From the NCBI GenBank assembly GCA_001778375.1, contig MFGV01000075.1:2354-66353 (forward strand): a stretch of 64,000 bases of DNA, written 5' to 3'. Source of the stretch: Candidatus Firestonebacteria bacterium RIFOXYD2_FULL_39_29. GTDB taxonomy: Bacteria > Oederibacteriota > D2-FULL-39-29. The translations under genes and the position numbers were made by a program. Shown here one piece after another: positions 2,150 to 46,401 of this stretch (position 1 is its first letter; every line of letters begins with the position of its first letter). The notes under the pieces were generated by a model, which was not told the DNA's origin, ran no database searches, and saw only the letters and a list, made by a program, of their open reading frames with translations.

Positions 2150-5100
2150 AATATAACATCTCCCTTGACTCAACAACCTTTGCAGTGATATTGGAACTTG
2201 CTCCCTTGTTTTTGGAGATTTTCACAAGTTCTTTTATTAATTCAAGGATGTCTTTGTTTTCTTTTGCTCTCTTTACAATTTCCCTGGTCAGCTTTTTGAT
2301 TTTCTGACTGTCCAATACATTTTTAGTCTGAAAAGATATTCGAGCTAACTTAATATCTTCCATCTCAAAGTGAAGGTTATACATAAGTTCAAGAACCTTG
2401 TTCTGCTGGCCAATAGGTGAACCAGCTGCTTCCGAAACCGTATATGACTGTGACTTTTGCCTAACAATCTCAGATACCTCCACTTTGCTGATACTAATTT
2501 TATCGGCAACACGCTTATTATCGTCTTTATTTGTCTTTAGCCATTCCAAGGCCTGAAGTTGAGGCACCGCTTTGAAATCATCACCATCTTTTGTTGTGGC
2601 ATAAAAGGCATAGCCAATTCCTTTTTCTTTTTCGGAGTCAAGCCTGCTAAGAATCAAAACATCGCCGCGCTTTTCACCATGGTGTTCACATTCCGGCATT
2701 ACAGCCCACTTGCCTTCTGATATACAGTATATGTCTTTCTTATATGCTTCAGGTATGTTTTCATCTTCATGGAATATTTTAAGATCTGACACATAATCAT
2801 CTTCCGCGAGAAGCAAATCGGACTCCTTTTCAGCCTCCTCAAACGCTTTCATTCTTTTTGCCTGATCATCACTATATATGTCTTTCCAAGTATCTGTAAA
2901 CTCAATAGGATTTTCTTTCTCGTCCAACACCGGAGTATCCGTACCTATTGTATTCTTTATGAGATTGATTTTTCCTTCCAGACGCTCTACCAACCTTAAA
3001 TGCTCTTCAAGCTGCTGTTCTGGGCTTATGTTATATATGTAAACATTTTTAAATTCTGAGCCAATCCTATTTATTCTGCCGTTTCTTTGTATCATCCTTA
3101 CTGGATTCCAATGCAGGTCATAATTTATAAGAATACCGCAATCTTGAAGGTTCTGACCTTCAGATAAAATATCGGTGGAGAATAGCCATTTTATTTCTGG
3201 TTTGCCCTTCAATTCGTATTTTTGTGCTTTAGGTGCAAAGCTTCCTGATAAAATATCTGCATCGACTCTGTTTCTTGAAGAAAGAAAGCCCTCTTTACCT
3301 TTTATGAACGGTGTGTGTTTGGGTAGTTCTCTTTTTAGATATTCAACCGTGTCTGCAAAGAACGAGAAAACCAGTACTTTTCCACCATTAGTATTCTTCT
3401 TGTTAATCTCATTGAGCAGATCGGCAAATGCTTTTATCTTTGAGTCGTCCTTTTCAATAATCGCAAGCTGTTGGTCAAGGACTTTAAGAAGTTGTTTTTC
3501 TTTTTCTATATCTTGCTTTAGCTCCTTGAGCGCATACCTCTTATCATCAACCTTATCAAGCTCAAGTTCTTTGATTTGATCCTGGTCTTCCGCATCTGCC
3601 TCATCATCACTTATCTCAAGTAATTGGCTTATAGCATCGGGATCATCCATACTAACAATTATATTTTTATTCAGTCCCTTTTCGAATATTTCCAGCTTCT
3701 CTCCGTAATTATCAAGAGAATACCGCAAAGCAGAAACAGAAGATTCAAGTCGCTTTAAAAGCGAGGTTCTTAATATCCCATATAAGCTAATCTGCCTGTA
3801 TAAATCCATTCTTTCTTCGCCGGGTAGGTTCAGCGCTTTTATCTGCTCACGCGTTTTTCCATAATACTTTGTCTGATACATTCTCCATTTGTAATGGATA
3901 AAACCTAGCATTAAGAGTGTTTTATAAACATAGCTAATCGGAGACTCATCTGTTTTCTCTTTTTCCATACATTTAATACTTCTAAGTTGCCTTAAAGGAT
4001 GCAGCAGATCTTTTGTATTATCTATAATGTCACCGGTTTGGAGGCAATATATTGTTTTCAAATCTATTTCTTTACTTTTAAGCCCCTGTATTTCCTTTAG
4101 GACTTCTTCCTTAAAACGGTATTTTTTTACTTCGGGATATGGTACCGGAAAGCCTGATTCTTTACCGTCAATTCTCAAACATCCATATTCTTTTATTATC
4201 CCCTGTCTTGTTCTACGCACCACAAAAGCCCTAATAATCGGCGCCATTATCTGCCTTACATAATCAAAATCTATCTCGCCCTTTTCACTATAATCTTGAT
4301 TCATTTTCTTTTTAAGATTTTGTATTGCAGTATAAAAATCAAGAGGAGCTGTGTGTTTAAGTTTATTATCAACAGCAGTGACCCTGAAAACATCAGCCTC
4401 CCCACCTGTGCCAAGAAGGATCTGATTTGACAAGTCATTTATCTGATTGTTAATCGGAGTGGCTGTCAGAAGAAGCACATGGCAGTTTTTATTAGTTCTT
4501 ATCCAATTAACTATCTGGTCAAATCTTTTTCCGGCTTTATTCCGTAGGTTATGGGATTCGTCTAAAACAAACAAGCTTACACCAGCTATTTTATCCAACG
4601 CTATCCGAGATTCTATCTCCTTTTGATTTTGCAGGGTTAGAGGTGTAATGTTTAAAACACCTTGGGTAGTCAATTCCTTGGTCCACTGATTCTTTAACGA
4701 CTTTGGACAAATCACCTCAATCCGCTTCTGTACACCGTCTCCGGTAAGGTACTGTTTGATGACTTCTATTGCCGTGTATGTCTTACCCAAACCGACGGAA
4801 TCGGCAAGCATCGCTACCTTGTATTTTCTTAACCTTCGGATAAGAGCGTGAACATTCTTTATCTGAAAGCTCATGAGATCGTGCGCGCCTTTTAGGCTGG
4901 TATCAAGCTCTTCTTCTTCAAGTTCTTCTTTGTACAGTTCATATAAAGTCTTGATATAAGTTTCATAAGGACTGTAAAGAGTATCTCCTACCGGAGAAAG
5001 CTCCAATATCTCGCTAAATTTTCCATCCCAGTCTTCCGTTGTCGGATCATTCCATAATTCATCAAACCAGAAGAGATGGCCTGCTTCCTGATCTTTACTT

Positions 5101-5609
5101 TTTGGTTGGAAATACACTATTCTATGGTCTGATTCTAAAGCGTTTAGCTCAGTGTTATGGGTCAATCCGCTTTCCGTAAAATTTGATGACCCAATGATGC
5201 CGATACCTTCTTTGCAGGAGTAATCTCCAAATATATAGCACTTGGCATGCAAAAAAGTCTTTCTATATACTTTGACTTCTAGAACCTTTTGATCAATTAA
5301 TTTTTTTAAACAAGTAATTGTATTTTTGAGTTTTCCGCTTGGAGGCATGCTTGCTAAATCATACTTAAAATCTTGATCAGGATAATCCGTTTCGGGGGAA
5401 GTTAATTGATGCCTTGGGATTAACGGCTCGCGTCCTATCAATAGCCGTATTTTCTTATATTTCCTTAGATTATCAATTACAAGGTCTGTTCCAGCAAGAT
5501 TCCAATATCCTGTAGCAATAGAAAGTGTATCAAAATCAGAGGAAATGTTTTTAATTGCATTCAAAAGGGAGACTCTTTTATTGTCAATTATCTTTGGTAA
5601 CCTTGCCAT
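2130..5609 (-). CDS. PLD-family nuclease domain fused to SNF2/DEXH helicase (1159 aa)
   Basis: N-terminal HKD-type motif HAKCYIF followed by GSSNFT (PLD/Nuc-like). Helicase motif I LADSVGLGKT, motif II VLDESHNLRN, motif III LLLTATPINN, motif VI QRNGRINRIGS. RBS AGGGGCGGAG upstream of ATG at 5609. Confidence 0.85.
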   Translation of the reverse strand: MARLPKIIDNKRVSLLNAIKNISSDFDTLSIATGYWNLAGTDLVIDNLRKYKKIRLLIGREPLIPRHQLTSPETDYPDQDFKYDLASMPPSGKLKNTITCLKKLIDQKVLEVKVYRKTFLHAKCYIFGDYSCKEGIGIIGSSNFTESGLTHNTELNALESDHRIVYFQPKSKDQEAGHLFWFDELWNDPTTEDWDGKFSEILELSPVGDTLYSPYETYIKTLYELYKEELEEEELDTSLKGAHDLMSFQIKNVHALIRRLRKYKVAMLADSVGLGKTYTAIEVIKQYLTGDGVQKRIEVICPKSLKNQWTKELTTQGVLNITPLTLQNQKEIESRIALDKIAGVSLFVLDESHNLRNKAGKRFDQIVNWIRTNKNCHVLLLTATPINNQINDLSNQILLGTGGEADVFRVTAVDNKLKHTAPLDFYTAIQNLKKKMNQDYSEKGEIDFDYVRQIMAPIIRAFVVRRTRQGIIKEYGCLRIDGKESGFPVPYPEVKKYRFKEEVLKEIQGLKSKEIDLKTIYCLQTGDIIDNTKDLLHPLRQLRSIKCMEKEKTDESPISYVYKTLLMLGFIHYKWRMYQTKYYGKTREQIKALNLPGEERMDLYRQISLYGILRTSLLKRLESSVSALRYSLDNYGEKLEIFEKGLNKNIIVSMDDPDAISQLLEISDDEADAEDQDQIKELELDKVDDKRYALKELKQDIEKEKQLLKVLDQQLAIIEKDDSKIKAFADLLNEINKKNTNGGKVLVFSFFADTVEYLKRELPKHTPFIKGKEGFLSSRNRVDADILSGSFAPKAQKYELKGKPEIKWLFSTDILSEGQNLQDCGILINYDLHWNPVRMIQRNGRINRIGSEFKNVYIYNISPEQQLEEHLRLVERLEGKINLIKNTIGTDTPVLDEKENPIEFTDTWKDIYSDDQAKRMKAFEEAEKESDLLLAEDDYVSDLKIFHEDENIPEAYKKDIYCISEGKWAVMPECEHHGEKRGDVLILSRLDSEKEKGIGYAFYATTKDGDDFKAVPQLQALEWLKTNKDDNKRVADKISISKVEVSEIVRQKSQSYTVSEAAGSPIGQQNKVLELMYNLHFEMEDIKLARISFQTKNVLDSQKIKKLTREIVKRAKENKDILELIKELVKISKNKGASSNITAKVVESREMLYYVRDNK

Positions 5610-5654
5610 CTATTCTCCGCCCCTGCTAAATTTTCACCCAAACAACATACAACT

Positions 5655-5880
5655 ATTATGATTTTACCATAAAAAAAGGTTTTTAAATAGTGGGAATTTG
5701 CATTTCGATGTAAAAACAAGGCAATATGAGTAGGATTTAAAAGATTTTATTTAGGGGCCGGCGGTCGCCCCTATTCGGTACTCAAGGGGTGAAACGGAGC
5801 GACCTGAAGGAATTGCGTCCGGCCCGTTTTAACTATTCGCTTATTCTATGAATTCTTTAAAAGGCTATCAAGCTAGTTAT
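5655..5880. repeat. Repeat A, copy 1: ~230 bp module with GC-rich imperfect palindrome (approx 5748-5845) plus AT-rich part carrying conserved TGGTAAAAT
   Basis: Homologous to 6455-6700. Conserved arms ATTTAGGGGCCGGCGGTCGCCC and GGAATTGCGTCCGGCCCGTTTTAAC are imperfect inverted repeats of each other; the centre differs between copies. Lies directly upstream of the helicase start. Confidence 0.7.
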
Positions 5881-6143
5881 TAGTTGCAGTTTTGCAGCAC
5901 ATTTTGAATTACTTTTAAATCTGCAATGATATTCTTCATTTCTTCATCATCATTTGTACCAAAAAGAACACTGTCGTACAAGTTTTTTTGTTCTATATGG
6001 AACAGGTGGTCATCACAAATGTTTTTCGTTATCCCTGCTGATTCTTCTTCTAAAATGCGCCTTAAAATCATAATCCGGACTTTATTTTCATCAATGCCAA
6101 AATCGTTCATCTTGCCCCCCTTGAAAATATTGGGGACAGACAC
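5880..6143 (-). CDS. hypothetical small protein (76-87 aa; probable true start MNDFGIDENK near 6110 with RBS AAGGGGGGC)
   Basis: Track ORF. N-terminal part overlaps repeat B copy 1. No recognisable domain. Confidence 0.4.
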   Translation of the reverse strand: MSVPNIFKGGKMNDFGIDENKVRIMILRRILEEESAGITKNICDDHLFHIEQKNLYDSVLFGTNDDEEMKNIIADLKVIQNVLQNCN

Positions 6144-6225
6144 CGCTTATCCTCCAAAAAGATCGGAGGATGAACAATATATAATTTTCACATTATAGTC
6201 GTTCAAAGATGTTGTCAGTCCCCGC
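6124..6225. repeat. Repeat B, copy 1: ~95 bp element with imperfect terminal inverted repeats and internal hairpin
   Basis: GGGGACAGACACC ... TGTTGTCAGTCCCC termini; internal ATCCTCC-N9-GGAGGAT hairpin; three copies in the window. Confidence 0.75.
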
Positions 6226-6253
6226 TATTTCAACCTTTGCCTATCGTAGATTT

Positions 6254-6403
6254 TTAGCCCGCTTCATTAACTTTAACGGCAGATTCATCAAACTTTTTTA
6301 AAAGCTTTATTTCCGCAGGAAGAAGAAACTTAGTATTTGAAAGTGAATTTAGCGTTAGTTTCTCTATTTCCGTCAGCACCACGTTGATTCTATATTCGGG
6401 CAT
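6254..6403 (-). CDS. hypothetical small protein (49 aa from MPEYRINVV; strong RBS AAAGGAGC)
   Basis: Track ORF 6254..6442 trimmed to the internal ATG that is preceded by an RBS. Upstream region is homologous to the helicase upstream region (repeat A module). Confidence 0.45.
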   Translation of the reverse strand: MPEYRINVVLTEIEKLTLNSLSNTKFLLPAEIKLLKKFDESAVKVNEAG

Positions 6404-6454
6404 TGAATTGCTCCTTTCATTTAATAAAAACAATTTTACCACAAAAGTGACTTA

Positions 6455-6700
6455 AAACAAAGGTTTTTGGACCAATATATTCATTACAGAGTAACGCTTT
6501 TCTATGGATTTATGGGAGAGAAAGGAAGTCATTTACGAGGATTTTATTTAGGGGCCGGCGGTCGCCCTCAGAAAAATAGAGCAATAGAAATTCGAAAACA
6601 TGCCTGACGGCATGATGCGAAAGGAATTGCGTCCGGACCGTTTTAACTACTCGTTGATTTTGTTTTTATTCTTTGAAATCTTTAAAAGGCTATCAAGATT
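6455..6700. repeat. Repeat A, copy 2 (~245 bp, GC-rich palindrome approx 6548-6650)
   Basis: Same conserved arms and TGGTAAAAT block as copy 1. The variable centre contains the hairpin GCATCATGCC-GTCAG-GCATGATGC. Confidence 0.7.
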
Positions 6701-36020: not shown

Positions 36021-38153
36021 TCAGCGCTGGAGCAAATCCAATTCTGAGATAAGGTCATCACAACTTCTTAATTTAAAGGAAGTCTGATTTTTATTTTTAA
36101 TTGTTGGCGTATGGCTCGGATAAGACAACCAATACTTTCCGGAATCATCTTGAACTACATTGTAATTTGAAATGAATTGAAATACTATTTTAAATTTGCT
36201 CCAATTATTTCCATCTTTTGAATACGAAAGATTTACACTTTGACCTTGATAATTAAAATATGAAACAAATAATACGTTATTGTTATCACAGAATATATTT
36301 ATATTGGCAATATGTGCAGAATGTTTTATTTTCTCTGAAAGGTTTTCTGTATTCACCAATTCAACAGGTTTACTCCAGTTTTTGCAGTCACTTGATGACG
36401 CAATCATAAGTTGATCATATTTCCCACTATTGTTTTTAAAAAATATCGTCTGCCATATTGCCCAATAAATCCCTTTTTTATCACGGATTATTTTATTTTC
36501 ACCAAATAACGTATCTTTCGGCAGTTGATCGCAAATGGAGGCAATATCATTACCGCTTTTTCCAATTTTACTATATTCTATTTTTAAACCCTTTTCAACT
36601 CCGTTATATTTTAAAGTAGTTATCATCCCATCATTTAATGCATACACAGTTGGTGTGATATATACACTTTTCTTTATAAATATGGGATCTTCCCAATTGA
36701 CGCCTTTGTCATGGCTCAAACTCAAGTAATAACCTGGTTTATCGACTATCTTATCTCCTTCAGAAATTAAAGCCGAACTGTCTTGCCTAGTTTCAAATAC
36801 CACACAATAATCCCCGTTTGGACGCATATAGCTTCCGAGAAGAATGTTCCTCATATTTGAACTTAAAAACAGTTTCCTCGGAGTTGACCACTCATTTTTC
36901 TCCTTTGTATTATCAGTAGAAATATATATTTCCGTGTCTTTAAAGGTATAACCCTGCTGTTGCCAAACTATTATACTTTTTTGATTAGTCTCATCAAAAT
37001 ACATGCTGAATTTATCCACCCCGCCACAATCAACAATATTTATTTCACTGCTCCACATTTTATTGGCAGTCGGATGAGCATAAGGCGGTCTCTTTACTAC
37101 CTGCTCCCATTTGCTGGACTTTCCATGAAGCACATCGCCGGCTTTCTCGATATTGAATAATAAAAGTTCTTTTATTTTAGCACCCAAGTATTCAATATGA
37201 GACAAATAATCACTTTCGGTCATTTTTAATTCTCGTGTATTATTATTTGGATTGTTTCTAATATTTTTACACTTTTCTTTAAATATATCATTTGCTCTAT
37301 TTAATACTTCCTCGGCCGTCCTATAATCCTTCAATTCATCCATGCAAATCCTTCCAACCTCCATGCGCAACAGTATTTCCCATTCTTCGCTTAAATTATT
37401 TGCATGTTTAAACATCTCAACATATTCAATTACCGAATGCCTATATTCCCCTAAATAATAATATATTTTAGCAAGGCTAAATCTTGGTTTATCATAATTG
37501 CTGTCTTTATTCTTTGACTGCATAAATGCAGCAAACGCGCTCTGATAATTACCGCCGTCAAAGTATTCCAAGCCTTCATAGTATTGCTGTAGTGCATTTA
37601 ATGAATTTGTCGGCCTTACTTTAATTCTCATATTTTCGTCTAAGGATAATTTAATATCGATATTATTAATTATCTTAAAAGCCAATTCTTTTTCCAGGTC
37701 TATAAAATCATCGAATCGGCTTTCCACTTTTACGGTTTTTACTACTTTTCCCGTTTCGATATCCATTAATACCGCTTCTATTGTCAGTTTTTCTCCCTGC
37801 TTAATATAGCTGCCGTATAACACATACTTCGCACTGCCGATTTCTCCTATTTTTTTTGCCGTAGCCTCATCTACAAGCCCGGTTAAACCTAATTTCAGTT
37901 CTTTAATGATCCTTTGCATTCTTTCTCTTTCAATTATCCGGAAGGAATCGCATTTAGACAAATCTGTTATTAACATATCCATGATCCCTTTTGATAGCCA
38001 CTGGCATTCTTTGCCTTTGTTTTCAAAAGAAGCAACGGCAAAATTATCACGCACATTTTTGCTATTTTGCGCGGGTTCGCTTTGAGCATAGCCGTTATAC
38101 GGGCAGGCGATTATTATTAATATTGCCAGAATATATTTAATTGTTCTGTTCAT
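36021..38153 (-). CDS. secreted CsgG-like + TPR + BNR/Asp-box repeat protein
   Basis: Signal peptide; FAVASFENKG...ERERMQRIIKELKLGLTGL block; TPR-like middle; Asp-box motifs SHDKGVNW and SKDGNNWS. 710 aa. Confidence 0.55.
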   Translation of the reverse strand: MNRTIKYILAILIIIACPYNGYAQSEPAQNSKNVRDNFAVASFENKGKECQWLSKGIMDMLITDLSKCDSFRIIERERMQRIIKELKLGLTGLVDEATAKKIGEIGSAKYVLYGSYIKQGEKLTIEAVLMDIETGKVVKTVKVESRFDDFIDLEKELAFKIINNIDIKLSLDENMRIKVRPTNSLNALQQYYEGLEYFDGGNYQSAFAAFMQSKNKDSNYDKPRFSLAKIYYYLGEYRHSVIEYVEMFKHANNLSEEWEILLRMEVGRICMDELKDYRTAEEVLNRANDIFKEKCKNIRNNPNNNTRELKMTESDYLSHIEYLGAKIKELLLFNIEKAGDVLHGKSSKWEQVVKRPPYAHPTANKMWSSEINIVDCGGVDKFSMYFDETNQKSIIVWQQQGYTFKDTEIYISTDNTKEKNEWSTPRKLFLSSNMRNILLGSYMRPNGDYCVVFETRQDSSALISEGDKIVDKPGYYLSLSHDKGVNWEDPIFIKKSVYITPTVYALNDGMITTLKYNGVEKGLKIEYSKIGKSGNDIASICDQLPKDTLFGENKIIRDKKGIYWAIWQTIFFKNNSGKYDQLMIASSSDCKNWSKPVELVNTENLSEKIKHSAHIANINIFCDNNNVLFVSYFNYQGQSVNLSYSKDGNNWSKFKIVFQFISNYNVVQDDSGKYWLSYPSHTPTIKNKNQTSFKLRSCDDLISELDLLQR

Positions 38154-38965
38154 TTAGCCTCAATCCTTGTCCCGGGAATATTTTTCATACAAATATTTAT
38201 TTTTTCTTTCACTATTTGAACAATTTTCGAGTTAATTGTTATTCCCAGCAGTCTTTCATAATCAAACATGGCATGCCGGTAATCTTTTAACTCAAAATAA
38301 CATTCGGCCCTTAAAAACAATGAATCGTAGTAGGAATAGTCACCTTCTTTTATTTTCATGGATTCAAATATGGCTTTATCATATTCCCCGGAATAATAAA
38401 ACCTCACGACGTTTGATAACCGGGGATCAATTGTTTTTACTTTATTTGAAATGTTCTCTTTATTTGCTGCGGTATTATTAAGTAATTTTTTAACAATTAT
38501 TCCGGAAAGTTTCACTATTTCCACCAGGCTTCCGGTTATTTCCTCTGATCTTAGTAATTTGGCTGTTTCAACATCATGGATATGAATATTTATTTTCAAC
38601 TCCGTCCCGGAAAGGACAAAACCTCCGGTTACAATATTATCCGTACCTATTATTTTCCCTACCTTTATAGTTAATTCTTCAGGCAAAGCCCCCGTTAAAC
38701 TTCGTTTTTGTTCCTTAATGATCTCATCAAGATTTTCTCTTTCCAAAACCTGAATATTATTATTCAATAAATCGATTGTGACCAGCTCTTTCAGATATAC
38801 TCCTAAATACTCATATTTATCACTGCCGGTTGAATTTTCCAGGGGAAATACTACAATATTTTTGGATCCTGCAGGATACAAATAACCGCATAACACAAAT
38901 ACTATCATAATAAATATTGCCCTGCTTTTCATAATTTGATTCCCTCTTATTTTAATTTTGACCAT
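38150..38965 (-). CDS. secreted CsgG-like domain protein with TPR-like C-terminus
   Basis: Signal peptide; VVFPLENSTGSDKYEYLGVYLKELVTIDL...ERENLDEIIKEQKRSLTG...GKIIGTDNIVTGGF. Confidence 0.5.
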   Translation of the reverse strand: MVKIKIRGNQIMKSRAIFIMIVFVLCGYLYPAGSKNIVVFPLENSTGSDKYEYLGVYLKELVTIDLLNNNIQVLERENLDEIIKEQKRSLTGALPEELTIKVGKIIGTDNIVTGGFVLSGTELKINIHIHDVETAKLLRSEEITGSLVEIVKLSGIIVKKLLNNTAANKENISNKVKTIDPRLSNVVRFYYSGEYDKAIFESMKIKEGDYSYYDSLFLRAECYFELKDYRHAMFDYERLLGITINSKIVQIVKEKINICMKNIPGTRIEAK

Positions 38966-40182
38966 TTAACACGGATCAAATCTTTTTCCTTGATAACACT
39001 ATCAAGTAAAACAAAATAATGCTGTTTTTCTTCTTCAATAGAAACCTTCCTGTATTTTGAAACCCATATTTTTCCATTTGACTTAAATGCTTTTAGTCGT
39101 CCACCGAATTCAGAAATATCCATAAATGAAACATCCAGATCAATCCTGTATAAAATATTTTCTCTGATTAGATAAAGCCCGTCCTTCCCAGGAACAGACC
39201 CTTTCGACAAGTATATCATTTCGGAATTATTTAATCGAAGTGCCCCGATTATATTATTATCATTAACAAGTTCACAGCATTCCAATACATCATTTCTTTC
39301 TTTCGAATTAATTTCCGGATCAATATTTCTGTCCGAAAGCTTCCAGGTCGACCCGGTGTAAACATAGGTTTTCCATTCTTTGTACTTTGGGTGAAGTCCC
39401 TCTGAATCATATGCTATCCAGTCCGAAGAATAGATATTATATGATTCATAGGATTTCGTTGCATTAACACAAAGGACATTATTATCAATAAAAAAAGGAG
39501 CTTGAAATCCGTTCCATCCACTGATTTCACAGGAATAAGTGCACCATTTTCCTTTTTGATAGTATCTTAAGCGCGAAGCTTTGAACTCTTTAATAGCTGT
39601 CTTTTCATAAAAAATAATGGAAATATTTTTCATGACCGGCTTGTCAGGACAAATATAAAAGACAGTTCCATCAGTATTTACAAATGGCTCAATAGTTTTA
39701 CCGTTTCCAACAAAATGCATCTTACCGTTGTTCTTATCAATGGCAAGAGCAAGAATATCTTCATACGGTCCGGTTTGTATCCGTCCTATTTTAGGATCAT
39801 AAATAATGGCAAAATAATCAAAGTCTACTGTCTCGTTTTTTATTAAAACAATAATCCAAATACGCCCTTCTGAGTCAAGAAAAAGTCTTTTTAAGGATTT
39901 AAAATACGGAATTATTGACTTTGTTTGATCTATTAAACGGCCTAAAGATTGGATCTTTATCTCCGCTCCATTTTTTCCCTCTGCTATCAGAGCAAAATCA
40001 GATTCATCTTCCGACGACTTAAAATACCAAACTGTTTCATCCTGACCTAAAATCGGGCGCATGAAGACTGTTCGAGTATTTGCATCTAAAAGAGGATTTC
40101 TGACAATTGATAACGACTGATCTTCAGCAGACGATACTAATGAAGCTAATAATACTATTATAAAAATCATACCATTCATCAT
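38947..40182 (-). CDS. secreted hypothetical protein (beta-rich)
   Basis: Signal peptide. No recognised motifs. Overlaps the neighbouring genes in an operon-like arrangement. Confidence 0.45.
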   Translation of the reverse strand: MMNGMIFIIVLLASLVSSAEDQSLSIVRNPLLDANTRTVFMRPILGQDETVWYFKSSEDESDFALIAEGKNGAEIKIQSLGRLIDQTKSIIPYFKSLKRLFLDSEGRIWIIVLIKNETVDFDYFAIIYDPKIGRIQTGPYEDILALAIDKNNGKMHFVGNGKTIEPFVNTDGTVFYICPDKPVMKNISIIFYEKTAIKEFKASRLRYYQKGKWCTYSCEISGWNGFQAPFFIDNNVLCVNATKSYESYNIYSSDWIAYDSEGLHPKYKEWKTYVYTGSTWKLSDRNIDPEINSKERNDVLECCELVNDNNIIGALRLNNSEMIYLSKGSVPGKDGLYLIRENILYRIDLDVSFMDISEFGGRLKAFKSNGKIWVSKYRKVSIEEEKQHYFVLLDSVIKEKDLIRVKWSKLK

Positions 40183-40289
40183 GTAATCCTTTAGACGGAC
40201 TTTCTTTTATTTGAATCCATTTTTTTCGACATTCATACACCTTTGAAAAAGTTATGACATTTTACATTAAAATAATCTTCAATATCAGA

Positions 40290-42524
40290 TTAATTTCCAA
40301 ATCTCTTTCTATTTTTGCTTTTAACATACATGCCAGATTTAATATCTCTCATATTAATTTCTTCTAAAACATTTGGAATATTTTCTTTTTTTATTCTGAT
40401 CCAAGTATCATTGTTGCTTATCCAGAGGGTGTCATAAACATCAATAAACGTACCGCTCAAGTCTATATCTTCGCTATAAAACTCCCAGGGAATATTAATT
40501 AACCTGTGAATAGAGTCACGTTTTTTTAAAAACAATCCGGGGCTCTTAAGCGTAAATATAACTATTTCCGGTTTACATTCTATGGTTTGCCCTATATTTT
40601 CAGCTCCAAACATATTACTTATTTTAGCAGATAGCTTATTTTCTTCCTTTATTTGAAGTTTTGGATCAGATTTTAATTCAGATATATAAGATTTTGCCCA
40701 ATCGTCTTTATCGAAAACATAATAACTTTTCTTGGAGAAATTATTTAACGTTGTAATATATGTTTTTCCTTCAGAAGTCTTGTTGAATCCCTCCAAAAAC
40801 AACTCACGGACGTCAGTTTTGCTAAAAACTTTTGCAATATTTGGAGATTTCCCAGTAAATGTAATAATTTCTCTGAATGCATCTGAAGGCATTCTGGTTA
40901 ACTTAGCAGGCAATGGTTTTCCCTTAATAAATAAAGTATCAGGAGCTGAAAAATATAAATCCATTTCTCCATTAATCAGTTTCAGTTGAAAATTATTATT
41001 ATCTTTATATTTATCAAGATATGCTTTATAAATACTCTCTATTATATATGTACCATCACTTTTTAATATAGCCACATGCATGTTTGCAAAGACCAACCAT
41101 ATACTATCATTCGAGTCTATTCCAAAAGATATAAAATAACTATCCTTGAGCTCTGCATTGACTGATCCAATTTGGCCCCAAAAATCATAGGCGGAGACAA
41201 CTTTTACAGTATTTTTTCCATCATATTTGTAAAGAGTTTTATGACCGAATCTTAATTCTCTTTTGTCCCAGTAGTAATTATTTTTACTGTCAGATATAAC
41301 TTTACCGTAATTCTGAAATTCCGCACAATATTTTTCAACTTTCAAAGAACTTAATGTTTTGGCAGCGTTCTTCTTGAGGATCTGAAAAAGAGTACTTGGC
41401 CTCAATCCATTACTTATATCATTTATAAGAAGAATATTTCCGTCAGGAAGTTTTAATATTTGTTTTATATTTACAAGATTTACTCCTTGAGAAGCGTCAA
41501 AAGAATACAATTTACCATCAGGAAGAATTAGATTTACGCCGCGTCCTTCTCCTTTCAGCATCCACACAAAACCATTGTCTTCAAGCATAAAATATTGCCG
41601 GTCTTTAGGATAAAATGTATTTTCTACAACATTTGTAGCATATTTTATGAACTTACTCTCGGAAACATAGAACAATTCATAGACAAGTTTATCAATCATA
41701 CTCAATACCCATAATTTTCCATCATCTGAATGATGATGTAAAACTGGAACAAAGCTGTTCTCATTAAAAACAGCATCTTTTTTAAATTCCAGCACATCAT
41801 TGTTTGTACTGTAATTTATCTTTGCACATTTAAAATCATTAACAAATTGGCTGATATAAACAGCTCCTGATATCTCAAAAATGTCATTTACAATTATCAA
41901 ACCTAATTTATCGCACGGTATTTTATGAATATTTTTGTTCTTAATAAGTATGATATTTTTATCGAAAAGGCTCTCATGCGCTGTCTTTTCTGTGGCCCAG
42001 ATCCAAACATTACCGGATGCCTCTTCAGAGAACATTATTGAATCGACATTTATGCGCCCAACGCCGGATTGTTTTCCTTGAATGCGCTCTTTAATAAGAC
42101 CATTGATTTTTATTTCCCCGTCAATATTAACAGTTATTCTCTTCCCATTCTTTGTTAGAAAGAAATTAAATATTTTGGAGTTTTTCTCCAGTATTTTCAG
42201 TTTCCCGCCTTCAACCGTTTCCAAAGTATAAATATCTTTATGTTTGCACAAAGCATATAACGTATCAAAACACCAGATGCGTATAATTCCGGAATCTTTA
42301 TCGGCAATTTTTCTAAGTCCGTCGGGGGAATACTTGTAAAGTTCGGAATCTATTACTGTCCATACATTTGAAGCTGAATCTCTTTCCGTTTTAAAAGAAG
42401 CCGCTTTTTCAATATTAGTATCAAGGTAAATATTTTTTGCTGAAATATTGACTTCTTCAGATAGGCAAAGGCAAACAATTAAGGTTAAAAATAAAACTGT
42501 CTTGAGAAAAATATATTTTTTCAT
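40290..42524 (-). CDS. secreted beta-propeller repeat protein (two-component-regulator-propeller-like repeats)
   Basis: Signal peptide; repeated xGxxWIxTxxGL-type blocks (SGNVWIWATEKTA, NGFVWMLKGEG, DSIWLVFANMHVAILKSDG, YDTLWISNNDTWIRI). 744 aa. Confidence 0.5.
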   Translation of the reverse strand: MKKYIFLKTVLFLTLIVCLCLSEEVNISAKNIYLDTNIEKAASFKTERDSASNVWTVIDSELYKYSPDGLRKIADKDSGIIRIWCFDTLYALCKHKDIYTLETVEGGKLKILEKNSKIFNFFLTKNGKRITVNIDGEIKINGLIKERIQGKQSGVGRINVDSIMFSEEASGNVWIWATEKTAHESLFDKNIILIKNKNIHKIPCDKLGLIIVNDIFEISGAVYISQFVNDFKCAKINYSTNNDVLEFKKDAVFNENSFVPVLHHHSDDGKLWVLSMIDKLVYELFYVSESKFIKYATNVVENTFYPKDRQYFMLEDNGFVWMLKGEGRGVNLILPDGKLYSFDASQGVNLVNIKQILKLPDGNILLINDISNGLRPSTLFQILKKNAAKTLSSLKVEKYCAEFQNYGKVISDSKNNYYWDKRELRFGHKTLYKYDGKNTVKVVSAYDFWGQIGSVNAELKDSYFISFGIDSNDSIWLVFANMHVAILKSDGTYIIESIYKAYLDKYKDNNNFQLKLINGEMDLYFSAPDTLFIKGKPLPAKLTRMPSDAFREIITFTGKSPNIAKVFSKTDVRELFLEGFNKTSEGKTYITTLNNFSKKSYYVFDKDDWAKSYISELKSDPKLQIKEENKLSAKISNMFGAENIGQTIECKPEIVIFTLKSPGLFLKKRDSIHRLINIPWEFYSEDIDLSGTFIDVYDTLWISNNDTWIRIKKENIPNVLEEINMRDIKSGMYVKSKNRKRFGN

Positions 42525-42597
42525 GAAATCCCCCTCGTAATAATCTTTATAAATGTATTATAATTGTTCTCTATTCATATAGCAACCCCCAAATTCA

Positions 42598-45513
42598 TCA
42601 CGATAAAATCTTACTCAGCACCGATAGATCGATCGGGATTTGGAGGATTCTTTCGTCTTTGGTTTTATAAAGGAAATGGTGTTTTTCGATTAGGTATTCG
42701 AAAAGTTCTTTTGTGATGGCTACGTCATGTTTGCAATATTCTATTATCAGGTCTATTTTACCCTCTTTAAACCATTGCAGGGACTGCAGGCCGTCGGAGG
42801 ATTTTCCTTTGTTCAGGTTTACTGAACTTAAATGGTTAAGGGACAAACGGAAACCAAGCTGGTCGTAAACCAGATCCAGCATATCAAGAGTGGGGATTTT
42901 TGTAAAATCAATATTGGTGTAACCTCGGAGGACACCCCAATCAAAACGTTTAATATTAAAACCGACTACCAGATCCGCCTGAAGGAACATATTTATCATC
43001 TCTTTTACTTTATCCTCGGTAAAGGAATAGTATTTGTCATCTTTAAAGGAATATACCACACCGACAGCAAGACCCATAAGATGCGGGTTGTTCCAGCCTC
43101 CGACTTCGGCGGCGCTTCTTTGTGTTTCCGCGTCGAAAACCAGGACGTTTTTGCCTTTCAGTTTTTGTTTTACATCTTCTTCGTCTATACCGGCTTCAAC
43201 AAGTTTTAGAAGGTCTGTTTTATCCTTATGAACTAATTCAACACAATCCAGCTTATCCGTACTGTTTATAAAACTATTTAGCAGGGTTATCGCGACATTT
43301 TTATCTAAAGGTTTATTACCGCTCCCGCATTTTGAGGATTGTATGCAGGAAGGGCAGCCAAAATCACACGGGCAGCTGTTTAACATCTCAAGAGTCGTCT
43401 TCATCAGATCAGGGGCTAATTCATAAGCTTTCTCCGAAAGACCCACGCCTCCGGGATGCGCGTCGTAAATAAATATAGCGGGACATTTCAGATTCCCGTT
43501 AAACTCCATTGAAACACCGCCTATATCCTGGCGGTCAGAGAGAGTAAGTAACGGCAGCATAGATATTACGGCGTGTTCTATTGCGTGAATACCCCCGGCA
43601 AAATCACCGATATCACACGTAATGATCTTTCCTTTAAGAGCATCAGGTATCTCCATCCAGATGGAAACCGTTTCAAATATATGCGGAGGCAGTGTGAGTT
43701 CATGCTCGTCAAATATCACCTGGCTGTATATCTTTTTCCTGACATAACCTACAACTTTTTCCGTAACCCGGACTTTCCCAAGTTTTATTATTATCTCTCC
43801 CAGCTGCTTTTGTTTGAAAGTATCAATAACTTCTATTTCTTCGGTGGCTCTTGTTTCCGTAAAATAATCAACGTCCGCTTCCTTTACTCTTACTTTTTTT
43901 GCGGTAAGGTCAAGCTCAATAACTTCATATTGACTCCCGGAATGCAGGTAAATGGCGTTCTGATGACATTCCCGCAGTACTCTGGGATAATCTACCTCAC
44001 CTATTACTTTATTTTTTGCGGCATCAACGACGACAAAAGAATCTCCAATAGACCTGATGGACAAGAACCTTGAAGGCTGTCTTTCAAAACTGTGGTATTT
44101 TCCGTCATTACTTTTTTGAAGTTTGTTATCCCTGGTCAGCTCGCTCAGGAAATATGGCAATGTATCGCCGTAAATATCTTTATCAGTTTCGACATCTAAA
44201 GGAGATTCAGAAGCTGCGCAGGCCAGATGGGCCTTTGAGATAACCGGATTATGAAAATCAACAACTGCGGATTCACACGGTTTTTCGAATAATTTCACGG
44301 GATTGGTCATAAAATACTGATCCAGCGCATCCTGAAGCCCGATAAGGATTACGAGCGCATCGCCTACTCTTCCCACCCTTCCGCTTCTCTGCCACGTGCT
44401 CATGATACTGCCCGGATATCCGACCAGAATACATACATCCAAACCACCTATATCAATACCGACTTCAAGCGCAGAGGTTGAGATCACGCCGACAAGTTCT
44501 TCTGAAAACAGTTTTCTTTCGATCTCCCGCCTTTCCTCCGGCAAATATCCGGATCTGTAAGCTGCGATCTTACTTGTGTATTTTAAACCAAGCGCAGAGA
44601 TCCACTGATAAATCAGCTCCGTTACCTTTCTGGCTTTTGTGAAAACAATCGTTTTCATATCATTACTCACGCATTCTCTGAGCAGGTGAGCCGCTTCCGT
44701 ATACGGACTTTCAGATGGGTTCCAGAGTAAAAAATACTTTGAGGAAGAAGGCGCGCCGTTCTTTTCCACCATTTCAAAATCCAACCCTGTAAGTCCGGTA
44801 ACAAATTCGTAAGCGTTTGATATTGTAGCGCTGGAACAGATAAATACAGGATCACTTCCATAATGCCGGCAGATCCTTCTTAAACGTCTTATTATATGCG
44901 CCACATGGGAGCCAAAGACACCTCTATAAGAATGTACTTCATCTATAACCACATATTTTAAATTCTTGAAAAACTCGATCCAGCCGCCATGATACGGTAA
45001 AATACCAAAATGAAGCATGTCCGGATTTGTCAGTATAATTCTTGGCAACTCTTTTTTTATTTTAGAACGCTGATAGGCCGAAGTATCTCCGTCATAGATA
45101 GAAGCTAAAGGAAAATCCCCGGCAAAAAGATCTTTTTTAAAATCCATAACGGTATTAAACTGGTCATGCGCAAGAGCCTTAATAGGATAGAGATAAAGCG
45201 CCCGGGTATTTGGCTCCTTAAGGATACTGTCAATTACGGGGATATTATATATGAGAGTTTTTCCGCTGGCTGTCGGCGTTACAACACAGACATTTTTATT
45301 TTTTCGTATGAGCTCAATTGCCTCAGTCTGATGCGAGTAGAGTTGTTTTAACCCCTGAAAATGAAGATAATTTATTAAAGACTCTGATATCCCTTCCGGA
45401 AAATCAGAATAAGACCCTTTTTTAGCCTGGATATAATGGGCATGAACAAGACATTTGGAATGACTGCTGTCACTGCTTAGATGATTTATAAACGACTTTA
45501 TGTCTGAAACCAT
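42598..45513 (-). CDS. MrfA-like DEAD/DEAH helicase with DUF1998 zinc ribbon, fused to a C-terminal DnaQ-like DEDDh 3'-5' exonuclease (MrfB-like)
   Basis: Walker A TPTASGKT, DEVH box, motif VI QRSGRVGR. DUF1998-type Cys cluster CPCDFGCPSC...C. C-terminal exonuclease motifs LVFDAETQ (Exo I), VGFNIKRFDWGVL (Exo II), YCKHDVAITKELF (Exo III, H-x4-D). Confidence 0.75.
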   Translation of the reverse strand: MVSDIKSFINHLSSDSSHSKCLVHAHYIQAKKGSYSDFPEGISESLINYLHFQGLKQLYSHQTEAIELIRKNKNVCVVTPTASGKTLIYNIPVIDSILKEPNTRALYLYPIKALAHDQFNTVMDFKKDLFAGDFPLASIYDGDTSAYQRSKIKKELPRIILTNPDMLHFGILPYHGGWIEFFKNLKYVVIDEVHSYRGVFGSHVAHIIRRLRRICRHYGSDPVFICSSATISNAYEFVTGLTGLDFEMVEKNGAPSSSKYFLLWNPSESPYTEAAHLLRECVSNDMKTIVFTKARKVTELIYQWISALGLKYTSKIAAYRSGYLPEERREIERKLFSEELVGVISTSALEVGIDIGGLDVCILVGYPGSIMSTWQRSGRVGRVGDALVILIGLQDALDQYFMTNPVKLFEKPCESAVVDFHNPVISKAHLACAASESPLDVETDKDIYGDTLPYFLSELTRDNKLQKSNDGKYHSFERQPSRFLSIRSIGDSFVVVDAAKNKVIGEVDYPRVLRECHQNAIYLHSGSQYEVIELDLTAKKVRVKEADVDYFTETRATEEIEVIDTFKQKQLGEIIIKLGKVRVTEKVVGYVRKKIYSQVIFDEHELTLPPHIFETVSIWMEIPDALKGKIITCDIGDFAGGIHAIEHAVISMLPLLTLSDRQDIGGVSMEFNGNLKCPAIFIYDAHPGGVGLSEKAYELAPDLMKTTLEMLNSCPCDFGCPSCIQSSKCGSGNKPLDKNVAITLLNSFINSTDKLDCVELVHKDKTDLLKLVEAGIDEEDVKQKLKGKNVLVFDAETQRSAAEVGGWNNPHLMGLAVGVVYSFKDDKYYSFTEDKVKEMINMFLQADLVVGFNIKRFDWGVLRGYTNIDFTKIPTLDMLDLVYDQLGFRLSLNHLSSVNLNKGKSSDGLQSLQWFKEGKIDLIIEYCKHDVAITKELFEYLIEKHHFLYKTKDERILQIPIDLSVLSKILS

Positions 45514-45519
45514 TGTCTT

Positions 45520-46401
45520 TTACCTTATGAGATATAAAAATACCGGTATTGTTATAAGCGAAATAGCAGTTGTTAAAAGCGCCCCTGCTGCCGCATAATC
45601 CGTATCTTTCTTGTACTCTGTGGCAAAAAGTATTGCCGAGAAAGCGCAAGGCATTGAGGCCTGCAGTACTATTATAGATCTTACAACGGGATCAAGGTTA
45701 AAAAGCCCCGTTAAAAATACTATTATTGCAGGAGCTATAAAAAGTTTAAGCGCGACAGTTAACACCATGTCTTTGCTTCTAAGCATTGTTTTTGCGTTAT
45801 GGATTTCAACATTTGATATAATGGCTCCGGTTATTAGCATCGCAAGGGGTGTTGTAATACTTCCTATAGATTTAAGAGGAGAAATAATTATTTGGGGCAG
45901 TTTGATCTCAAGCATGGCGAGTATGAAACCGATAAACAACGCTACAATAGCGGGATTAACGAATTGTTTCCAGGAGATCTTAGTTTTACCTGAATCATAC
46001 AGTCTTACACCCAGGGTCCACAAAACCATGTCTGCGATAAAACTGTAAAGAAAGATATAAACAACTCCAATGTCGCCAAAAAGTAACAACGCAAGAGGCA
46101 AAGAAATGTAATAGTAGTTCTGTATCAAATTTAAATAGATAAATTGATTGCGCCTTTCTTCTTTAATCTTGAAGATCCTGGAAGCAAGAAAACCCATAGG
46201 CAGGTTAACAAGGATCATAGTAATAAAAGCAAAAACCGGAAGAGCTAATGTTTTCATTAGCATCTCCCGGTTGTAAGTGGTCACCATATTTGCAACTATT
46301 AAACAGGGAATAGAGATCTTGAAAACTATCTTTGTAAGATCCGCTGTCAGTTCCTGCTTAATAAGTTTCAACTTTCCGGCAATAAATCCTATACCTATCA
46401 T
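45520..46401 (-). CDS. AEC-family (auxin efflux carrier-like) membrane transporter
   Basis: ~10 TM segments, AEC-like internal repeat, 293 aa. Confidence 0.6.
   Translation of the reverse strand: MIGIGFIAGKLKLIKQELTADLTKIVFKISIPCLIVANMVTTYNREMLMKTLALPVFAFITMILVNLPMGFLASRIFKIKEERRNQFIYLNLIQNYYYISLPLALLLFGDIGVVYIFLYSFIADMVLWTLGVRLYDSGKTKISWKQFVNPAIVALFIGFILAMLEIKLPQIIISPLKSIGSITTPLAMLITGAIISNVEIHNAKTMLRSKDMVLTVALKLFIAPAIIVFLTGLFNLDPVVRSIIVLQASMPCAFSAILFATEYKKDTDYAAAGALLTTAISLITIPVFLYLIR

Follow-up and report, generated by a model that had tools for sequence, protein, structure and literature searches.

A single gene in the window (the whole 64,000-nucleotide stretch of DNA analysed, from Candidatus Firestonebacteria bacterium RIFOXYD2_FULL_39_29) encodes a MrfA-type DEAD/DUF1998 helicase followed by a DEDD-superfamily exonuclease domain in the same chain. 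We consider it likely, with a probability of about 0.72, that this protein is a self-contained helicase-nuclease providing a one-protein excision route similar to that of MrfA plus MrfB, and that it serves genome maintenance rather than phage defence. MrfAB is the sole described UvrABC-independent excision-repair route in bacteria, and the cooperation between its helicase and its nuclease is still unexplained (PMC7797055, PMC11194089).

The gene and its helicase module

The gene lies on the minus strand at 42598..45513 (stop codon included), where the ORF list and translation give one unbroken reading frame of 971 aa, as the earlier note had claimed. All of the features described below are on this strand. 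The closest homologue among the matches listed is a Candidatus Firestonebacteria protein with 91% identity, and more than 120 homologue clusters span approximately 99% of the query; the gene is genuine and conserved. When the surroundings of the gene were scanned for promoters and terminators, the counts equalled the shuffled expectation and were uninformative.

Residues 1-735 are assigned, from their sequence, as a full-length SF2 helicase of the MrfA/YprA type. The sequence of the B. subtilis MrfA crystal structure (PDB 6ZNP) gives a collinear match over residues 8-727 (E=2.4e-160), and a separate comparison of the helicase module with B. subtilis MrfA shows 38% identity (E=9e-177). Four Pfam families match above their cut-offs: DEAD in the RecA1 domain (PF00270, 114 bits; aa 60-234, 44812..45336), Helicase_C in the RecA2 domain (PF00271, 57.8 bits; aa 277-384, 44362..44685), the Hrq1/MrfA-type winged helix WHD_HRQ1 (PF22982, 52.1 bits; aa 418-489, 44047..44262), which also aligns with B. 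subtilis MrfA, and the zinc-binding MZB/DUF1998 domain (PF09369, 80 bits; aa 645-724, 43342..43581). The NCBIfam model TIGR03817 (DECH_helic) scores 726.9 bits, under its cut-off of 874.1, although the match still spans positions 1-739 of the 742 in the model.

The helicase motifs and the DUF1998 Cys cluster reported in the earlier note are all in place. RecA1 contains motif I (TPTASGKT, aa 79-86, 45256-45279) and motif II (DEVH, aa 191-194, 44932-44943), and RecA2 contains motif VI (QRSGRVGR, aa 375-382, 44368-44391); the residues of these motifs are invariant in the homologue alignment. Also invariant are the cysteines C714, C716, C720 and C723 (43345-43374), which fall within the PF09369 match and form a CPCxxGCPSC pattern common to the query and B. 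subtilis MrfA.

The two modules are joined by a linker (aa 736-785, 43159..43308) that, in the AF2 model, consists of one short helix and then a low-confidence segment. Residues 752-779 have a pLDDT below 50 in the full-length model (whole-model pTM 0.73), and the stretch from K738 to D794, leading from the zinc-binding domain to Exo I, varies from 38 to 86 residues across homologues. This tether of approximately 50 residues is therefore predicted to be largely disordered.

The C-terminal exonuclease domain

The remaining 186 residues (aa 786-971, 42601..43158) match PF13482 with 25.8 bits, the cut-off being 22, so that the C-terminal region does align with DEDD exonucleases in a profile search, with the D/E ligands present. 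The same Pfam family is matched by 29 of 30 exonuclease-family members (best E 3.3e-12). An AF2 model of the domain is confident (pLDDT 94.9), and its best Foldseek matches in the PDB are the proofreading exonuclease domains of PolB, T7, RB69 and Pol-epsilon (E down to 7e-7, TM 0.64-0.68), the top matches all being DEDDy domains. An NCBIfam scan of the domain returned nothing relevant, and single-sequence and profile searches against PDB sequences gave no meaningful matches, neither of them retrieving the MrfB structure 8UN9.

The earlier note had described a complete Exo I/II/III set belonging to a DEDDh domain with an H-x4-D variant. The set is indeed complete: Exo I is FDAET (aa 793-797, 43123-43137; D794 and E796), Exo II is GFNIKRFD (aa 851-858, 42940-42963; D858) and Exo III is YCKHD (aa 926-930, 42724-42738; Y926-x3-D930). 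The class, however, had to be revised, as there is no His five residues ahead of D930 and the catalytic position is held by Tyr926. All 41 sequences in an alignment of homologues that are 44-91% identical to the query keep D794, E796, D858, Y926 and D930, together with N853 and F857 of Exo II, whereas His929, adjoining D930, is variable (K15, Q7, H4, M3, others). Because the residue four before the last Asp is this invariant Tyr, which falls within model helix 920-944, and the neighbouring His is not conserved, the sequence places the domain in the DEDDy rather than the DEDDh class. Wider samples agree: Tyr occupies the Exo III catalytic position in 117/121 sequences (the query and 120 listed homologues), in 147/149 cluster representatives (the other two were unreadable) and in 80/80 genome loci (the best 80 of at least 576 species genomes). 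A His is found there in four fused homologues ('EHCRRDV').

The description of the nuclease as MrfB-like stands at the level of the superfamily and of PF13482, but not below it. The four acidic DEDD ligands of the MrfB class are kept (D794, E796, D858 and D930), MrfB D107/E109 falls on Exo I of the fused domain in an alignment and D172 on Exo II, and Tyr926 is equivalent in position to MrfB His258, four before Asp262 (residue numbers from PMC11194089). MrfB also has the same proofreading exonuclease domains as structural neighbours (PMC11194089), and the fused partner is termed a MrfB/YprB homologue in the literature. These points, together with the four fused homologues carrying His, would fit a MrfA fused to a true DEDDh MrfB orthologue and excising mitomycin adducts exactly as in B. 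subtilis. We regard this reading as unlikely. All 120 MrfB homologues examined have H-N-E-x-D, whereas the fifth residue of the fused domain is conserved as Tyr. The N-terminal extension of approximately 100 residues that precedes Exo I in MrfB is absent, and MrfB possesses a TPR domain (PMC11194089; residues 291-359 of B. subtilis MrfB gave weak TPR matches that stayed under the cut-off), whereas the 971-aa protein has no TPR matches and its chain ends 41 residues past D930. On PF13482, B. subtilis MrfB scores 136.6 bits against the marginal 25.8 of the fused domain. Beyond the motif-level alignment, comparisons of the two were non-significant by BLASTP, by hhalign (1.7% probability against a 30-sequence MrfB family profile and 3.2% in a further comparison) and by reciprocal hmmsearch in databases of 120 and 269 sequences (none at E<=1e-3; best E 0.0018 and 0.021). 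The MrfB structure 8UN9 was not retrieved from the PDB by the fused-domain profile at E<=1, and lay outside the top 50 Foldseek matches of the fused-domain model. The fused domain was consequently not classed as a MrfB orthologue.

The marginal Pfam score might also be read as a sign that the domain has degenerated or has a purely structural role, as do the inactivated RNase H-fold domains fused to TALON YprA helicases, which would leave the protein with helicase activity alone; a 2025 survey finds that loss of activity is frequent among the nuclease domains of the YprA family (10.1101/2025.09.15.676423). The invariance of the five catalytic residues and of N853 and F857 over the 41 sequences, and the confident AF2 model with its canonical fold, make this highly improbable. 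It is also possible, though less likely than not, that the fused nuclease does not descend from MrfB and was recruited independently as a minimal DEDDy exonuclease resembling those of polymerase proofreading. The same module is also found as a stand-alone gene (approximately 180 aa), in SWIM-domain fusions and in a phage Gp157 fusion.

Distribution, gene context and proposed function

The earlier note had suggested an uncharacterised repair or defence enzyme and had proposed comparing fused and split forms. By ORF length and tblastn, approximately 70 of the best 80 genome loci, drawn from at least 576 species genomes in which the exonuclease domain is present, encode the two modules as a fusion, while at one locus (L003) the helicase and the exonuclease are adjacent separate ORFs. 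Fused homologues occur in Firestonebacteria, Desulfobacterota, Myxococcota, Methylomirabilota, Acidobacteriota, Scalindua and KSB1, and the carriers include the cultured species Desulfosarcina variabilis and Desulfoluna butyratoxydans. A MrfA-MrfB fusion is mentioned by Burby & Simmons 2018/2019 (10.1101/426304) and again in the 2025 YprA-family survey (10.1101/2025.09.15.676423); in the passages covered, the papers do no more than mention it, and the term 'DEDD' does not appear in their text. The architecture is thus not new: the protein is a typical member of a large group that had already been noticed, and the gene in the window is not exceptional within it. Our literature search found no paper characterizing a fused member and no biochemistry for any. 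Fused proteins now carry the label 'DEAD/DEAH box helicase' alone, so that the nuclease half is overlooked.

The gene context also bears on whether the protein might be an anti-phage or anti-plasmid defence enzyme, a single-gene relative of DISARM DrmA, Druantia DruE and the Dpd helicases in which the exonuclease is the effector degrading invading DNA. The PADLOC models BrxHI, DruE, SngC, DrmA and DpdJ/F do match the protein, and in one member of the exonuclease family the chain also contains a phage Sipho_Gp157 domain. In addition, nuclease domains are found at the C-terminus of many YprA helicases with a defensive role (10.1101/2025.09.15.676423). The PADLOC matches are, however, limited to the generic helicase core or the MZB region and none covers a whole model, the NCBIfam DrmA models reach no more than 25 and 17 bits where their cut-offs are 999 and 950, and the repair helicase MrfA is by far the best match. 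Around the gene lie genes of metabolism and the envelope, namely those for a transporter, an aminotransferase, a dehydrogenase, formate-THF ligase and envelope lipoproteins; a methylase, a PLD nuclease and DrmB are all absent from this neighbourhood. Across the 80 loci there is no conserved neighbour or operon partner, only antisense shadow ORFs and lineage-specific synteny of housekeeping genes; one recurrent flanking gene has an N-terminus that resembles elongation factor P when read by eye, and we take it to be of that kind. The lack of a conserved partner argues against both a multi-gene system and a defence island. The 2025 survey assigns the helicases that are associated with MrfB or fused to it to the DNA-repair branch (10.1101/2025.09.15.676423). 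A DrmA/DISARM-like role, raised in the earlier note, therefore finds no support in the gene context, and we consider a defence function quite improbable.

Genome maintenance by a helicase-nuclease acting in one chain is the reading that we prefer, and the proposal of such a unit in the earlier note is borne out at the level of predicted activities by Pfam, the 6ZNP match, AF2 and Foldseek. The N-terminal module would be an ATP-driven SF2 helicase composed of RecA1, RecA2, a winged helix, an OB-CON canopy and the zinc-binding MZB domain. By homology, it would translocate 3'->5' on single-stranded DNA, MrfA homologues being 3'-5' DNA helicases (PMC7797055). The C-terminal module would be a two-metal-ion DEDDy 3'-5' exonuclease using D794, E796, D858, Y926 and D930. 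The helicase may open or strip the damaged or nicked strand, after which the tethered exonuclease would degrade the freed 3' end, making the fusion a single-protein version of the B. subtilis MrfA+MrfB excision route. A functional link between the modules is suggested by the prevalence of the fusion among the best 80 loci and by the adjacent ORFs at L003. As DEDDy enzymes include RNases (RNase D and NrnC), an RNA substrate for the fused exonuclease is also possible.

In B. subtilis, there is a physical interaction between MrfA and MrfB, and the two are epistatic in mitomycin C (MMC) repair, as stated by Burby & Simmons (10.1101/426304); MrfB acts on DNA as a 3'-5' exonuclease (PMC11194089). 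Transfer of the MMC-repair role to the fusion is weak, because its exonuclease is not demonstrably a MrfB orthologue; distant MrfAB homologues from P. aeruginosa failed to complement, according to Burby & Simmons (10.1101/426304). The consistent replacement of His by Tyr, together with the missing TPR and N-terminal regions, suggests that the parts specific to MrfB may be dispensable once the modules are tethered. Covalent fusion sets the helicase:nuclease stoichiometry at 1:1, and the protein could serve as a single-chain subject for structural or single-molecule study of helicase-nuclease coupling.

Comparison with known systems

The nearest known system is MrfA (YprA) and MrfB (YprB) of B. 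subtilis. The helicases have the same domain order and zinc cluster, and the partner activity is likewise a PF13482 DEDD-superfamily 3'-5' exonuclease; however, MrfAB is encoded by two adjacent genes (locus L081) and the query by one. The query exonuclease is a minimal DEDDy domain of approximately 186 aa with Tyr926, whereas MrfB is a DEDDh enzyme (His258) with an N-terminal region of approximately 100 aa and a C-terminal TPR. In eukaryotes, a similar pairing is seen in the RecQ helicase WRN, an SF2 3'-5' enzyme with an N-terminal DEDDy 3'-5' exonuclease in the same chain. WRN differs from the fusion in the N-terminal position and PF01612 class of its exonuclease, in being a true RecQ helicase and in having no MZB, and its origin is independent. 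If the exonuclease of the fused proteins was independently recruited, the fusion would be a case of bacterial convergence on the WRN arrangement, with a substrate range unlike that of the mitomycin-specific MrfAB. Relatives of MrfA (Hrq1) have been placed among the RecQ4-like helicases (PMC7797055).

The query has its SF2 core and DUF1998/MZB in common with DISARM DrmA and the remaining defensive YprA helicases, but the matches to DrmA are partial and far under the cut-offs, and the DISARM partner genes are absent at the locus. In the defensive YprA clades, the helicase is combined with PLD, Vsr or PD-(D/E)xK nucleases or with RNase H-fold domains that have been inactivated, and not with an active DEDD exonuclease (10.1101/2025.09.15.676423). 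The fused MrfA-MrfB homologues mentioned in the literature have the same architecture as the query. DinG of Staphylococcus aureus is also a natural helicase-exonuclease fusion and is implicated in tolerance of MMC and crosslinks (PMC12345164). Its helicase is a 5'-3' enzyme of an unrelated family, and its exonuclease is an N-terminal, canonical DEDDh domain (DnaQ/RNase T-like).

The fusion gene and its helicase module

The gene at 42598-45513 (minus strand) is a single uninterrupted open reading frame (ORF) of 971 codons, and is genuine and conserved. Among the database matches listed, the closest protein (91% identity) is from a Candidatus Firestonebacteria MAG, and more than 120 homologue clusters (90% identity clustering) span approximately 99% of the protein length at 43-91% identity. 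A 92%-identical orthologue lies behind the same upstream transporter gene in Candidatus Firestonebacteria RIFOXYA2_FULL_40_8 (locus L001).

Residues 1-735 form the helicase module, as determined by Pfam and by alignment to B. subtilis MrfA. Four Pfam matches exceed their cut-offs: DEAD (114 bits), Helicase_C (57.8), Hrq1-type winged helix (52.1), and MrfA zinc-binding MZB/DUF1998 (80.0). In a search of PDB sequences, residues 8-727 are collinear with YprA/MrfA (6ZNP, E=2.4e-160), and BLASTP gives 38% identity to B. subtilis MrfA (E=9e-177). Motif I (TPTASGKT, residues 79-86), motif II (DEVH, 191-194), motif VI (QRSGRVGR, 375-382) and the zinc cluster (C714-P-C716-DFG-C720-PS-C723) are invariant among 41 homologues. 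The match to NCBIfam TIGR03817 spans the full model at 727 bits, below the strict cut-off of 874. The earlier note had proposed an MrfA-like DEAD/DUF1998 helicase with motifs I, II and VI and a Cys cluster, fused to an exonuclease in one polypeptide; the helicase is fully borne out, and both modules are identified within the one ORF.

The two modules are confident in the full-length model (pLDDT 86.4, pTM 0.73), with residues 752-779 below pLDDT 50. Homologues differ in the length of the segment separating the zinc-binding domain from Exo I (38 to 86 residues). Such a low-confidence, length-variable junction is what would be expected of a flexible tether.

The exonuclease domain and its catalytic motif

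The C-terminal module (residues 786-971, minus strand) is, on its Pfam match and predicted structure, a DEDD-fold exonuclease domain. In isolation it scores 25.8 bits against Pfam PF13482 ("RNase_H_2"; cut-off 22), with sub-threshold matches to PolA- and PolB-type 3'-5' exonuclease families. Among 30 members of the exonuclease family, 29 match PF13482 (best E 3.3e-12), 26 match DNA_pol_A_exo1 and 22 match DNA_pol_B_exo2. An AlphaFold2 model built from the alignment of 30 sequences is very confident (pLDDT 94.9, pTM 0.90), with the topology beta1-3/alphaA/beta4/alphaB/beta5/alphaC. Its Foldseek matches in the PDB (E down to 6.9e-7, query TM 0.64-0.68) are proofreading exonuclease domains: those of archaeal family-B polymerases, T7 DNA polymerase, RB69 gp43, HSV polymerase and yeast Pol epsilon. 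The earlier note would have abandoned its assignment had this region failed to align to DEDD exonucleases; it does align, best to these polymerase domains, and the assignment therefore survives.

The active sites of both modules are intact, that of the exonuclease comprising Exo I (F-D794-A-E796-T), Exo II (GFNIKRF-D858) and Exo III (Y926-C-K-H-D930). The catalytic residues of B. subtilis MrfB are D107, E109, D172, H258 and D262 (PMC11194089), placing the catalytic His at position -4 relative to the last Asp. The position equivalent to His258 is Tyr926. Across all 41 aligned homologues Y926, C927, D930 and V931 do not vary; the position of His929, the sole His nearby, does, with Lys in 15, Gln in 7 and His in 4 of them. 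The Exo III Tyr is present in 117 of 121 sequences (the fusion protein and the 120 homologues listed), in 147 of the 149 top-matching representatives of the wider family (two have an unreadable motif), and at all of the best 80 loci from at least 576 genomes; all 120 Bacillaceae MrfB homologues listed have H-N-E-x-D. In the full-length model, Y926 falls within a long helix (920-944), the arrangement given for DEDDy enzymes in the MrfB paper (PMC11194089). The domain is thus DEDDy. The DEDDh type with an H-x4-D variant, claimed previously, must be withdrawn: H-x4-D is absent from the exonuclease domain of the fusion protein, and Exo III reads Y926-x3-D930 with a conserved Tyr and a variable His929.

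His replaces the Exo III Tyr in the remaining four of the 121 sequences (homologues P0021, P0023, P0025 and P0042), a small clade of fused proteins. Their motif, EHCRRDV, has the H-x3-D spacing of B. subtilis MrfB, indicating that Tyr and His have been interchanged at Exo III within the fused family.

Distribution and genomic context

An exhaustive search with the exonuclease-domain profile recovers 4061 cluster representatives with E<=1e-3, of which 568 reach E<=1e-30. The top 149 include 30 full-length fusions, 27 fragments with a zinc motif upstream, and at least 26 proteins in which the domain is N-terminal (most are 175-250 aa long, but five are longer fusions of 344-544 aa). Other architectures are SWIM-exonuclease (Pfam-confirmed N-terminal SWIM zinc finger in homologues P0163 and P0228; N-terminal sequence pattern only in P0177, P0179 and P0231), exonuclease joined to phage Sipho_Gp157 (P0196), and forms in which the domain carries long, unassigned extensions (including P0176, with an uncharacterised C-terminal region of approximately 360 aa). 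In P0133 and P0151 (approximately 350 aa), an N-terminal DEAD-domain fragment is joined directly to the exonuclease domain; these may have arisen from the fusion by internal deletion, or may reflect misassembly or faulty gene calling.

At least 576 species-representative genomes carry the domain, and approximately 70 of the best 80 loci are fusions, in Desulfobacterota, Myxococcota, Methylomirabilota, Acidobacteriota, Firestonebacteria and others (cultured carriers include Desulfosarcina variabilis and Desulfoluna butyratoxydans). The fusion is therefore widespread and old rather than a particularity of the window. In an Actinomycetota MAG (L003), the helicase (3645-5810) and exonuclease (5989-6555) are adjacent in different reading frames, so that the two are a genuinely split pair or the product of a frameshift. 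Stand-alone exonuclease genes encoding 190-220 aa occur in Candidatus Poribacteria (L048, L062) and Nitrospina (L058, L073), with no MrfA-like gene within 6 kb.

The fusion gene ATG is 6 nt past the stop codon of an AEC-family transporter gene (45520-46401; junction 45514-45522), an adjacency kept in L001, which suggests co-transcription with an unrelated membrane transporter. Further upstream are genes for an aminotransferase, a Glu/Leu/Phe/Val dehydrogenase and formate-THF ligase; downstream are uncharacterised secreted proteins and CsgG-like lipoproteins. The downstream region 36021-42524 (minus strand) has a GC content of 0.31-0.34 vs approximately 0.40 on either side, and contains a run of four genes whose products are probably secreted or located in the envelope: a 744-aa protein (40290-42524) that starts with a signal-like sequence, matches nothing in Pfam or NCBIfam and has a weak relative (32% identity) in L001 only; a 411-aa protein (38947-40182) with no match; and two lipoproteins resembling CsgG/LpoB, in which TPR or BNR-like regions occur (38150-38965 and 36021-38153), all on the minus strand. 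A promoter-like site (TTGCTA-17-TATAAT, 10/12 positions; 42557-42585, minus strand) lies in the 73-nt gap between the fusion gene stop and the next gene start; as such sites are as frequent in the region as in shuffled sequence, it is a lead only.

The target gene is the sole gene common to the 80 loci. All-against-all comparison of their flanking ORFs reveals no partner gene that recurs; the repeated matches are antisense shadow ORFs and housekeeping synteny. One recurrent flanking ORF we take, from its N-terminus read by eye, to be elongation factor P. A 166-aa antisense ORF inside the helicase gene (43573-44073, plus strand) has counterparts in 60 of the 80 loci. We read these recurring ORFs as shadows of helicase coding-strand conservation and not as genes.

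Probable function and relation to MrfB

With a probability of about 0.7, the protein is a single-chain equivalent of MrfA plus MrfB acting in genome maintenance. By analogy with its homologues, from which polarity, substrate, coupling and role are drawn, the MrfA-type motor would translocate 3'-5' on ssDNA and unwind or strip a damaged or nicked strand, and the tethered DEDDy nuclease would degrade the released 3' end. Fused MrfA-MrfB homologues have been mentioned before, by Burby & Simmons (10.1101/426304) and in a 2025 survey of YprA-family helicases. The words "fused" and "fusion" are absent from the MrfA and MrfB structure papers, and the literature searched (DUF1998/helicase/exonuclease fusions; MrfA/MrfB) yielded no paper on the biochemical behaviour of a genuine MrfA-exonuclease fusion.

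That the nuclease is a strict DEDDh orthologue of MrfB, as the earlier note had it, is unlikely. We rebuilt the B. subtilis MrfA sequence from the PDB alignment, traced it through its database entry to the locus, and translated the adjoining 413-aa yprB/mrfB. MrfB scores 136.6 bits on PF13482, making it a core member, and both nucleases therefore belong to one Pfam family. Little similarity remains beyond this: the BLASTP alignment is limited to Exo II (E=0.017). With hhalign, the domain profile aligns to MrfB with Exo I and Exo II in correct register, at 3.2% probability; against a 30-sequence MrfB family profile the probability is 1.7%. Reciprocal hmmsearch in small local databases gives best E-values of 0.0018 and 0.021 (none <=1e-3), and a PDB search with the domain profile at E<=1 misses the MrfB structure 8UN9 while weakly matching T7 polymerase exonuclease. 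A defence role is less likely still: PADLOC matches (BrxHI, DruE, DrmA, Dpd) exist but are confined to the shared helicase core, and nothing among the window neighbours, the flanks of the 80 loci or the PADLOC results points to a defence island. An inactive exonuclease domain, given the intact catalytic residues, is very improbable.

Genome maintenance by a helicase-nuclease remains our preferred reading. The earlier note identified the fusion correctly, overstated its novelty and mistook its motif type; the modest value added here is the DEDDy assignment, with evidence for a nuclease subfamily distinct from MrfB. "MrfB-like" holds insofar as a 3'-5' DEDD exonuclease of the PF13482 family is attached to an MrfA helicase. 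In contrast to MrfB, which has approximately 100 residues before Exo I and a C-terminal TPR domain, the fused domain has neither, and with its Exo III Tyr and non-significant profile matches it fails several tests of membership in MrfB proper. The two nonetheless have unusual structural neighbours in common, the PolB-type exonucleases, as seen by Foldseek for the fused domain and as described for MrfB (PMC11194089).
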